Positions 21,001-24,000 of a stretch of DNA of 64,000 bases are shown here, one piece after another. The stretch comes from Escherichia coli (GTDB lineage Bacteria > Pseudomonadota > Gammaproteobacteria > Enterobacterales > Enterobacteriaceae). Each line of letters opens with the position of its first letter. The first letter of the stretch is position 1. Made by a program: the position numbers. The stretch lies in assembly GCF_050320075.1 (NCBI RefSeq), contig NZ_CP190018.1. One strand, written 5' to 3'.

Positions 21001-24000
21001 TGATGTGGATACCGCAGCAGGCCGACTGAAACGCTATTACAAGTTTTACTCGAATGATGAGGTAAATGCGATCCGCAATAACGGCACAACTGACGGAAAA
21101 TGGCAGGCAAGTGCGATTATTGACAATGGGCATATCTGGGATGCGATGCCGGGCAGTTACTACAAAATGGGAGGAAACTGGCGTAAAGGCAGCTTTGATG
21201 ATCACCTGACGATTGAGGTGGAAAAGAACGGTAAGGGAAGCCGGGTCTATATCACCTATGCTTCAGCTTCTCAGGCGCATTTGCAGGCAAGTTCTCTTGA
21301 GCCTCTGTTTAAGCGAGTGAAGGATGTGGCTGAAGGAAAGGTTCGTTGATGAGCACGCCACGGGCAAGCCCTTATGGCTAAAGGAGAGGGAGATTGCCCG
21401 TGGCGGCCCACTTTTTTTAATCATTTTTTTACCATGTTGTCCAGTATTTTTACATAAGTGAAACATCTGGTGTTGTTTTCTGTTCATCGTGCTGGAAGTT
21501 ACAGGGCTTGTAATTGAACGGGGAGAGATGTAATTTACGTGCGCAAAAATTTTACTCAAGGGGGAGAAAACCGATGAAACCGAATATCCATCCTGAATAC
21601 CGTACTGTGGTGTTCCACGATACCAGTATCGATGAGTACTATAAAATTGGTTCGACCATCAAGACTGAACGTGTGATTGAGCTTGATGGTGTCACCTATC
21701 CGTACGTAACAATTGATGTTTCCTCTAAGTCGCATCCTTTCTACACTGGCAAACTGAGAACTGTTGCTTCAGAAGGTAACGTGGCGCGCTTTAACCAGCG
21801 TTTCGGTCGTTTTGTTGACACCAAAAAAGGCGCATGAGCAGAAATCGATCACAGGCGCGATTGATATGGAAAGGTATTGCATGAGTGTCTGAGGTCGGTT
21901 ATTTTACGTTTCACAAGAAAGAAGCACTTAAACAGAAACTCACAGTCCATATTCCTTCATCCCCGGTTACGGGGATTTTTTTTAGCTGTTGTCTGGGGAG
22001 GGAAGGGGGCTGTGTCGGGCTGGGAGCTGTAAGGCTGCGATTGTCCGGGTGATGTCTGAACATGCGGTATGTTTGCGTTAAACAAGGGGGGAGTATGTGG
22101 ATACTGATTTTCTGGCTTTCAACACCATATTCAGTGTCATCCAGTGTTGCCAGACAACCAACGCTTGCTGTTCATTCTCAGGAGTTCGCCAGCGAAAGGG
22201 CCTGCAGGAATGCGCTGGCTGAGATGAAGAAGGTGAATGTCGGAGAACTGACCCTGAGGGGGATCTGTGTCTCAAAAGAATAGTGGGGTAGAGGGAGCGA
22301 ACCAGGCTGTTTTATCAGGATGTGATTCTGGAGAGTCCGCTCGCCGCAGTCCGGCGACCGAACGGTAGTGAGCGAGCGGACGAGGAAGCGGAACGTCACA
22401 GTTCTTTCATAATGCACCTACGCTGTGTGGTTACATGGGTAAAGGATGAATATCACCATTCTATATCTGTTTCTGAAAAACAGTTTCGCTTGTTGCCTGT
22501 CATTGCCGGCTGGCGTTAGCATACAGAGGCGGTATTATCCCCTGTGATATTACGGGTTATTTTGTTTTGCTCTGTAAGACCTGGCCAGCTATTATGCTGG
22601 CCTTTTTTGTGGTTTATTGTTCGCAGTCCAGCATTGCAAATAATTTTCGTTTCTGTTCCTTCACATACTCAACATCAACAGTACAATCCAGATAACTTAA
22701 CTCATCTTCTGTCCAGGCATTGATGGATTCTTTTATTCGGTGTGTCACATCCGGTGTGAGTATGTCGCGCATTTTCTCAATGGTATCCCGGCTTATTTCT
22801 CCTCGTGGAGATTCAAGCAGAGGAATTACTGCCTGATGTCCCGGAGGGAGTATAAGACGTAATTCATATTTAAGTGTTTCGTTGAGTAAACGACAGAAAG
22901 CACTGTATTTCTCTTTCCGGGTACTGTTCATCGTTTATTCCTTCTCATTACTGTGCATGGTGTAAGATTAAAGCGTTTTGCAAAAGATGTACAAGTTGTT
23001 TTTATCCGGATTTAATATCATGGACTCACTTTTCTTTTGTGTCAGTGGGTACTGCATTGTTTATTAGCCACGGCAATTGTTGATTACCCTGTATTTTTCG
23101 GATGTAGTTATCAATAATATCTTTTGTTTCATCACTATTATTATAAAAAGATTCAAGTGTGCATATAAAATCATCATTTAATGCAGGTAGCAGGATTATG
23201 TTTTTTACTGTGAACCTGATATGACGATTACTCAGTGTTTTTAAATAAAGTTTCTTTCCAATAACAGGATTTACATTGAAAATATTGTAACAGATTTCCA
23301 CTGTGTTTTCTGAAGGTGCGTATAATACGTATACCGGATATTTTTTATGAAGTTTTATCAGGCAATTTATAAAGTCTAAGGAATTTGTTTGTTTTGCTTT
23401 TTCTCGCATCTTATTTACGTGTTGCGAAAAGAAATATGCTTTTGTAAATATAAAAAGAAAAATAAGCGCAGTGTTTAACAGAAATGTGATGGCAATTGTT
23501 ATAAATAACCATTTACCTGAACCTGTATTAAAGATATGGGATGAAAGATACCCACCTGTCAGCAACAAAAATATAAATAATAATGACTGCATTTTTTCCT
23601 GGTTGTTTATTGATGATTTCAGACACAGAAATATAACAACACATGCAAAGCTCCAGAAAAATATAACAGCAAAATCCATATTATCACCTTTTGTCTGACA
23701 GTTCATTTGTTGATGCTATCACGATATTCGCGATGCGGTAAATATATCAATATGTTGGTTTATTTGTGTAATACATTATTTCCCATATGCCATAAATCAG
23801 TCTGTTGACGATAGCTTTTTTCTTTTGTTATTCTGTTCCCGCATTAACTGTCGCTTCGGCGACCAACCAATCTCCCGGTGGTCTGAGAGGGAGGCTTACG
23901 CGACCACACTGTCATCTCAGGATGACCAGCCAATGTTCCGGCAGTCTGAGAGGAGCGCCTTCGGGTGACTGCAATATCCCATGAGCCTGGAAGAGGATGC

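Follow-up and report, generated by a model that had tools for sequence, protein, structure and literature searches.

We analysed a window of 64,000 nucleotides of Escherichia coli DNA (RefSeq assembly GCF_050320075.1, contig NZ_CP190018.1), in which an initial annotation had noted a YkgM-like gene for a zinc-independent paralogue of ribosomal protein L31 beside genes for conjugative transfer. The exchange of L31A for L31B is the textbook case of how ribosomes are remodelled in response to zinc, with Zur regarded as its sole gate in E. coli. The product of the window gene scores 121.6 bits against NCBIfam model NF002462 (type B 50S ribosomal protein L31; cut-off 86), with generic L31 models scoring lower, and 87 bits against Pfam Ribosomal_L31. 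Among solved structures, the best match is ribosome-bound E. coli bL31B (6i7v chain D7, E = 3.5e-40), with the product identical at 64 of the 68 modelled residues. Compared with K-12 YkgM, 81 of 87 residues (93.1%) and 81.8% of the DNA are identical, and 42 of the 48 nucleotide differences are at third codon positions. Residues 1-18, including M1, K2, H6 and E8, are the same in both proteins; I19, Y23, E32, V34, N74 and D82 set the window allele apart. None of the 87 residues is a cysteine, which means that the CxxC zinc-binding cysteines of type A are missing, and the protein is therefore of the zinc-free (C-minus) type. By sequence, the gene is thus YkgM-like, as had been proposed, and codes for a complete type B L31 of the Escherichia kind; we infer that its product occupies the bL31 site in the 70S ribosome. 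The end coordinate originally assigned to the gene, 21988, lies 151 nt past the stop codon and has to be corrected, as the extra stretch consists of the 3′ untranslated region (3′UTR) and a terminator. The features of the locus are collected in Table 1.

Table 1. Features at and around the L31B gene, in window coordinates
Feature	Position	Strand	Basis or remark
TraG N-terminal-domain protein, last gene of the high-GC type IV secretion module	18680..20176	+	Annotation of an identical record; PF07916
190-aa lipoprotein gene, function unassigned	20777..21349	+	Gene of the element family, outside the L31B unit
Intrinsic terminator that closes the 190-aa lipoprotein gene, 5′ of L31B	21351..21419	+	Inverted repeat I1, RNA fold, terminator scan
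Candidate sigma70-like promoter, TTGTAA-17 nt-TAATTT	21508..21536	+	Weak prediction; position weight matrix (PWM) score 8.9 bits
Segment at the position of the ykgM Zur operator	21537..21557	+	ACGTGCGCAAAAATTTTACTC; no Zur-box similarity
Shine-Dalgarno sequence, AAGGGGGAG	21558..21566	+	7 nt before ATG; read directly from the sequence
Island-type bL31B coding sequence	21574..21837	+	87 aa, no Cys, ATG start, stop TGA at 21835-21837
3′UTR of the L31B gene	21838..21958	+	No tblastn similarity to YkgO
Intrinsic terminator, ATCCCCGGTTACGGGGAT then T8	21959..21984	+	Terminator scan, fold
tRNA-Phe, attachment site and right border of the element	58126..58201	-	ARAGORN; integrase adjoins tRNA-Phe in a homologous record

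On the E. coli chromosome, ykgM is the first gene of the Zur-repressed ykgM-ykgO operon, and the window gene lacks both of its companions there. No L36/YkgO-like frame was found 3′ of L31B or anywhere in the window (the best tblastn match, E = 0.067, is at an unrelated position), and none was found in 19 island loci, while such a frame is present in all three chromosomal controls (K-12, Salmonella and Enterobacter). Homology to the K-12 ykgM-ykgO locus starts near the start codon and ends exactly at the stop codon. A degraded ykgO in the 3′UTR can be ruled out, since there is no tblastn signal and the K-12 homology has ended before it. Searching for the 15-mer core of the Zur box (TGTTATNNTATAACA) with up to three mismatches gave six matches in the window against 9.8 expected, none of them in 21350-21573, and the 20-mer structure-based pattern of Gilston et al. 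(PMC4219657; TGWNAYRWTATAWYRTNWCA) gave one match with three mismatches, at position 1331, against 1.4 expected. The best 15-mer site in the 300 nt 5′ of the gene has 6/14 mismatches. The same scans of the three controls find a site with one mismatch directly 5′ of ykgM; all three carry GTTATGTTATAACA at the operator position, between the -10 element and the Shine-Dalgarno sequence (SD). The earlier observations that no ykgO-like frame follows the gene and that no Zur box precedes it were thus borne out, and both results extend to the whole window, where Zur-box matches are at chance level.

A second lineage of integrative and conjugative elements (ICEs) in E. coli carries L31B at the same site, next to a TraG N-terminal-domain protein (TraG-N) that is 88% identical to that of the window. 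The same partial match is found in 13 genomes, of which one (L005) was examined; its copy is altered, as described below. We predicted the intact form of this allele and then searched for it, and a protein of exactly this 87-aa sequence was found, in 32,163 indexed blocks of the assembly collection. By DNA search it is present in 576 of 5426 complete E. coli genomes, strains of enterohaemorrhagic E. coli (EHEC) serotypes O157:H7, O145 and O111:H8 among them, and we refer to it as the EHEC allele. It lies directly 3′ of ureDABCEFG in urease islands (of the urease/tellurite type, presumably OI-43/48 / SpLE1), and it is followed by hok/gef and a gene for a 223-aa protein, as in the second ICE (2.9 kb, 87.7% identity).

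Each pair of the three full-length alleles (window ICE, EHEC island and K-12) is identical at 81/87 residues and at 81-83% of the DNA. The proportions of synonymous and nonsynonymous sites that differ are 0.63-0.69 (pS) and 0.030-0.036 (pN) in this three-allele comparison (0.68 and 0.035 for window ICE and K-12), with a nonsynonymous-to-synonymous ratio (omega) of about 0.02, and synonymous sites are saturated. Between the window and EHEC alleles there are 38 synonymous and 6 nonsynonymous differences (omega again about 0.02), where neutrality would predict roughly three nonsynonymous changes per synonymous one, and two haplotypes within the window ICE type differ at 6 synonymous and 0 nonsynonymous positions in L31B. 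K-12 and Enterobacter ykgM, at the same pS (0.685), have fourfold the pN (0.146). For ICE backbone genes, comparison of the two ICE lineages gives a pS of 0.39-0.61 and an omega of 0.06-0.14, so L31B is more tightly constrained than the neighbouring conjugation genes. These patterns point to very strong purifying selection on L31B in both island lineages. The two island alleles also agree with each other against K-12 at three residues (I19, V34 and D82), have the lowest pS of the three pairs and show a divergence at the upper end of the range of the ICE backbone genes; together, these properties indicate that they are sisters.

The upstream regions suggest where this lineage came from. The EHEC allele is preceded by GTTGAAT-17 nt-TACCTTTATG and K-12 ykgM by GTTGAAA-17 nt-TATCTTTATG, at the same distance from the start codon, and this alignment was beaten by just 0.45% of 2000 shuffles (p = 0.0045). 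Right after the -10 element, K-12 has its Zur box (GTTATGTTATAACATAACAGG), where the EHEC allele has CGGAATTTTCACTTAAAGGGGG and the window allele CGCAAAAATTTTACTCAAGGGGGAG. The two island alleles have in common a derived block in the 5′UTR, AATTTT(C)ACT(C/T)AA(G/A)GGGG(A)GAAAAC (local alignment p = 0.0045), which in the window reads AATTTT-ACTCAAGGGGGAGAAAAC and contains the SD, and their collinear upstream similarity extends over about 230 nt. Direct homology between the window ICE and K-12 upstream regions is not significant alone (p about 0.2), and the link runs via the EHEC allele. The EHEC upstream region has no protein-level homology to the 190-aa lipoprotein encoded 5′ of the window gene. 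On these alignments, the window gene derives from a ykgM-type chromosomal locus, promoter included. In the simplest account, a ykgM gene would have been captured once along with its promoter, the operator would then have been replaced and the SD strengthened, ykgO would have been lost, and the ICE and EHEC-island lineages would have split thereafter. The initial suggestion that the window gene may be expressed differently from the chromosomal copy is thereby strengthened but not proven: it has become more plausible because the sister keeps the ykgM -35 and -10 elements, and both island alleles have a shared new 5′UTR with a stronger SD.

Zur-like sites do occur at the EHEC locus, with four matches of two to three mismatches against 0.41 expected, among them a 15-mer core with two mismatches at about -246 and two matches with three mismatches to the structure-based pattern. 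With these sequences present farther upstream of the gene, the loss of zinc control may be less complete in the EHEC allele than in the window. At the EHEC locus L058, a -10-like hexamer (TAAAAT) is followed 8 nt later by a Zur-like box with two mismatches (TGTTATATTATCAGA; 7740-7770), a second half-box (TATAACAT) lies at 7885-7904, and a 46-aa open reading frame (ORF; 7741-7881) and a hairpin stand between the Zur-like boxes and the L31B promoter. These boxes may represent a residual or second zinc-responsive promoter.

The window gene forms a self-contained unit that is bracketed by two intrinsic terminators and has a strong SD and an unstructured leader. The upstream terminator has a perfect 12-bp stem (21356-21367/21394-21405) followed by a T-run (-34.4 kcal/mol, z = -3.96). 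The L31B leader folds worse than shuffled sequences (z = +1.3), has no match to a ribosomal-protein leader of Rfam at E <= 10, and no hairpin resembling a single-stranded-DNA promoter was found on either strand. The window equivalent of the -10 element is TAATTT (21531-21536), where the aligned sequence of the EHEC allele has TACCTT and that of K-12 ykgM TATCTT, and the best -35 element that a change in spacer length has left is TTGTAA (21508-21513). Farther downstream, at 22538-22608 (+), there is a weak, sub-threshold Rfam match to the sRNA SorX (28.6 bits, gathering score 46.6, E = 4e-4), overlapped by weaker matches to RyhB, rseX and the Trp leader, which is probably a mere terminator-like hairpin.

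The element that carries the gene was identified from other genomes. Of the 5426 complete E. coli genomes, 33 contain the 801-bp segment around the gene at 99.5% identity or more, 30 of them at 100%; it occurs at differing record coordinates among the 33 (although records may start at different points), and every copy examined lies inside the same ICE. The region is thus not the chromosomal remnant that had been considered at the outset. The annotation of one such record delimits an element of ~79 kb that extends from a tRNA-Ser-side border to tRNA-Phe. Its backbone encodes ParA, an SPI-7-type DnaB, STY4528/STY4534-type replication proteins and topoisomerase III, along with a type IV secretion system (T4SS) of the TIGR037xx type with TraD and TraG-N, a type IVb pilus with a shufflon, TraI and an integrase. 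An MPF_G T4SS, a relaxase and an integrase by the tRNA are thus all present in the annotation of the identical segment and its flanks by the Prokaryotic Genome Annotation Pipeline (PGAP). On this annotation we assign the element to the SPI-7/PAPI-1/pKLC102 family of ICEs, inserted at tRNA-Phe. It is very probably of the ICEEc2 kind, which two later papers trace to a description from avian E. coli (PMC11537424 and PMC6761156, citing Roche 2010).

Just after traG-N, where the variable region begins, GC content drops from ~0.59 to 0.40-0.49, and L31B sits 1.4 kb after traG-N, at the start of this region. The gene therefore lies, as first described, between the transfer module and the variable region and away from the ykgM locus, with the T4SS upstream, low-GC DNA downstream and the tRNA-Phe border beyond. 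Between traG and L31B there are an opposite-strand ORF and the 190-aa lipoprotein gene, and the order traG-N, small ORF, 190-aa gene, L31B was found in 10/10 places examined for the window allele. The lipoprotein has a lipobox (LSAC) and no match in Pfam or NCBIfam; homologues with 43-51% identity are encoded 3′ of traG-N in seven related ICEs of other genera (Serratia, Edwardsiella, Mixta, Erwinia, Rosenbergiella, Pantoea and Enterobacter).

Variants of this ICE differ in their cargo. In some, a block of 3.3 kb with a GmrSD-like DUF262/HNH gene, an EcoRI-like methyltransferase and CcdAB begins 41 nt after the L31B stop codon (the breakpoint corresponds to window position ~21878). On each side of the block stands a ~100-bp direct repeat made up of the end of L31B (codons 67-87) and its 3′UTR, located at 9440-9578 and 12860-12990 in L006 and likewise present in L050, L053 and L056; because this repeat bounds the block, the 3′ end of L31B seems to serve as a recombination anchor for cargo exchange. 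Some variants have iha, a siderophore-receptor/adhesin gene that the literature also places in EHEC OI-43/48 islands, inserted in the T4SS region. In some genomes the L31B-bearing ICE segment is present two or three times (L050 and L051 in GCA_027274645.1; NZ_CP128970.1, TUM1886). The window departs in places from its best-matching record, NZ_CP033635.1: when positions 22100-58126 are compared, tRNA-Phe is ~1.3 kb nearer to L31B in the window, so there is an indel somewhere in the cargo or pilus region.

The exact window protein is indexed in 6,700 collection blocks. Together with its sister, the window gene belongs to an old island-borne L31B lineage, which about 11% of complete E. coli genomes carry. 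The description of the gene as island cargo accordingly stands insofar as it is island-borne, but not in the sense of a one-off pickup. The chromosomal ykgM-ykgO locus with its Zur box is present in 5060/5426 genomes. With a chimeric query, the count of genomes matched was unchanged at 5060 and each record gained at least one matching place (a single place, except in one record), which showed that every ICE-bearing genome has ykgMO as well. The island gene is hence a third L31 gene and not a replacement, and compensation by the ICE copy for a lost chromosomal ykgMO is ruled out. With respect to the chromosomal genes, ykgM-ykgO of Salmonella and Enterobacter lies between an EAL-domain gene and ylaC-maa-hha-tomB-acrB (L045 6001-6407 and L046 6001-6404), while K-12 ykgMO (L002 3375-3778) is in the ecp/ykg region and has only about 74% protein identity to them. 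In view of this different locus and low identity, E. coli ykgMO may itself be relocated or xenologous. We also considered plasmid-borne L31B as a general phenomenon and rejected it, since the two enterobacterial plasmid matches that were opened (Salmonella and Enterobacter) are chromosomal segments misfiled in PLSDB, with an acrAB-tomB-hha-maa-ylaC context. By their names and sizes, the E. coli matches in plasmid databases look like F-primes or chromosomes; matches below 60% identity come from Citrobacter, Streptomyces and others. Phage matches are distant only (<60%), several of them in records that resemble host contamination.

Taking these observations together, we hold, with confidence a little better than even, that the window gene encodes a working zinc-free bL31B that is expressed from the island without Zur control. 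Transcription would start at what is left of the ykgM promoter after loss of its repressor site, and bL31B would be produced in zinc-replete cells too. Derepression of the ykgM promoter, which is then very strong, raises its activity about 1000-fold (PMC7297116). The protein would then take the bL31 site at the central protuberance of the 50S subunit (bridge B1b), replacing bL31A in part, and its N-terminus would repress translation of the host rpmE mRNA. We propose these two steps because the island protein retains all relevant residues; they, and the resulting shift in the ribosome pool, are extrapolated from published work on E. coli YkgM. In that work, L31p (YkgM) replaces L31 in ribosomes and represses rpmE translation via a hairpin in the 5′UTR, for which N-terminal K2, H6 and E8 are needed, and M1, K2 and H6 of YkgM contact 5S rRNA (PMC9825181). 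A pool shifted to the zinc-free form would lower ribosomal zinc demand before or without derepression by Zur, which may help in zinc-poor host niches, so that zinc sparing is a plausible benefit. Translation would be expected to change as well, towards more frameshifting, lower processivity and cold sensitivity, since ribosomes with bL31B shift frame more readily, are less processive and perform worse in the cold than those with bL31A (PMC7363858). The gonococcal RpmE2 slows translation (PMC13343924).

Several observations weigh against the proposal that the gene is expressed and functional. The score of the candidate promoter is equalled in 11% of random 179-nt windows of the same sequence, a stricter consensus scan called no promoter upstream of the window gene, and the spacer change of 6-7 nt relative to the EHEC and K-12 promoters has put the ancestral -35 element out of register. 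In the second ICE, the L31B copy (L005 8956-9243, labelled 'rpmE' by PGAP) has had its first 18 codons swapped for unrelated sequence, and a 9-bp unit (GGGCGTTTT) has grown to five copies (GRFGRFGRFGRFGRF), giving GRF x5; this copy is decaying and the gene is dispensable there. No L31 gene was found within 6 kb of traG-N in any of 38 related ICEs of other genera (including Erwinia, Pantoea, Serratia, Pectobacterium and Photorhabdus; TraG-N 41-76% identical to that of the window), several of which do carry the lipoprotein gene. L31B is for this reason ruled out as a backbone gene of the ICE family, being restricted to two E. coli ICE lineages. All hosts checked already own a Zur-regulated ykgMO, so the added benefit is not obvious, and the published properties of bL31B ribosomes and of RpmE2 suggest that constitutive bL31B would be costly (PMC7363858; PMC13343924).

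Some of these points would fit a silent hitch-hiker, that is, a fragment of the ykgM locus that was caught at the recombination-prone edge of the variable region and is kept by linkage with no useful transcription. The lack of a consensus sigma70 promoter and the decayed second-ICE copy are the strongest arguments for this idea, and the position at the start of the low-GC region where cargo exchanges, the absence from the 38 related ICEs and the presence of ykgMO in the hosts agree with it. We nonetheless consider it rather unlikely, above all in light of an omega near 0.02 at saturated synonymous sites (6 nonsynonymous against 38 synonymous differences), but also because ORF, SD and terminator are all intact and thousands of indexed collection blocks have the identical protein. 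The gene might otherwise be expressed as part of the ICE life cycle, by read-through from the T4SS genes and traG or by regulators of transfer competence, and remodel ribosomes of donors or fresh transconjugants for purposes other than zinc economy. It is in the same orientation as the transfer operon and immediately 3′ of it, genes of the antirestriction or establishment type (ArdA; ArdC in the sister ICE) follow a few kb downstream, and no strong housekeeping promoter was found. Yet the opposite-strand ORF and the terminator hairpin (z = -3.96) separate L31B from traG and the lipoprotein gene, the promoter remnants are ykgM-like rather than ICE-like, and the sister is equally conserved in EHEC urease islands with no conjugation genes within the 8 kb examined on each side, all of which makes a role of this sort quite improbable.

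Continued regulation by zinc, whether indirect or by way of a Zur site that is distant or non-canonical, would mean that the island copy only adds dosage to the zinc-starvation response. The Zur-like sequences upstream of the EHEC sister lend this some plausibility, but matches in the 64-kb window are at chance level, the best site in the 300 nt 5′ of the window gene is a poor one, and in both island alleles the operator position is filled by unrelated sequence, so we regard such control as very unlikely here. The protein could also act mainly outside the ribosome, as an RNA-binding regulator or decoy for host rpmE mRNA or island transcripts. L31 and L31p are known translational repressors that act through their N-termini (PMC7297116, PMC9825181), and the N-terminus of the island protein is perfectly conserved. 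The C-terminal half, which bridges to the 30S head and is dispensable for repression, is equally conserved, however, and no target RNA motif was found nearby; a mainly extraribosomal role thus seems highly improbable.

An island-expressed bL31B that has escaped Zur would bear on how ribosome composition is controlled in the strains concerned. The window gene is a third, mobile L31 gene without a Zur operator, and it or its sister occurs in major lineages of pathogens (of the 5426 genomes, 576 carry the EHEC-type allele and 35 the ICE). If the gene is expressed, ribosome composition and rpmE expression in carrier strains would depart from the K-12 model, and horizontal transfer could alter the ribosome make-up of a host. 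A further-reaching version of this idea, which we consider rather less likely than not, is that the whole Zur-escaped lineage, carried by ICEEc2-like ICEs of avian pathogenic and extraintestinal pathogenic E. coli and by urease islands of O157 and other EHEC, is a cargo that reprograms ribosomes by being made constitutively, displacing bL31A and shutting down rpmE translation. Were this true, carriers would have permanently heterogeneous, zinc-sparing ribosomes with altered frameshifting and processivity, and their fitness under host nutritional immunity would be affected. The lineage also offers a natural experiment on the debated question of whether constitutive bL31B is beneficial, by sparing zinc, or costly, by making translation slower and more error-prone.

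Routine annotation labels the window gene as type B L31. In the searchable literature we found no study of the linkage of L31B to islands, of the loss of the Zur operator and ykgO, or of the selection regime. One paper names a 'ykgM_2' in a genomic island without comment (PMC12054123), and an analysis for ribosomal multilocus sequence typing (MLST) reported paralogues of L31 type B in some genomes (PMC5928088); the island gene explains the need to drop L31 type B from ribosomal MLST schemes (PMC5928088).

Among the known systems closest to the window gene is E. coli YkgM (bL31B), with which it shares fold family, length, zinc-free type and the N-terminal 18 residues, and whose promoter -35/-10 core is also present in the EHEC sister. 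It differs from ykgM in lacking the Zur operator and ykgO, in its different and stronger SD, in its location on a mobile island, in a nucleotide divergence of 18% and in the three island-specific residues I19, V34 and D82. With the EHEC island gene it has in common 81/87 residues, those three residues, the operator-less 5′UTR, ~230 nt of upstream sequence and the absence of ykgO, whereas the EHEC allele has a GTG start codon, a clearer ykgM promoter, Zur-like sites farther upstream and hok/gef downstream, with no conjugation genes in the 8 kb examined on each side. The element in the window has the backbone and tRNA-Phe integrase of the ICEEc2/SPI-7/PAPI-1/pKLC102 ICEs (MPF_G), to which L31B is an addition. 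Finally, the Zur-regulated rpmE2-rpmJ2 operons of Salmonella, Enterobacter and Neisseria gonorrhoeae encode the same class of paralogue, which swaps zinc-binding for zinc-free L31, but these operons are chromosomal, paired with L36B and directly preceded by a Zur box with one mismatch, and the window gene has none of these three properties.

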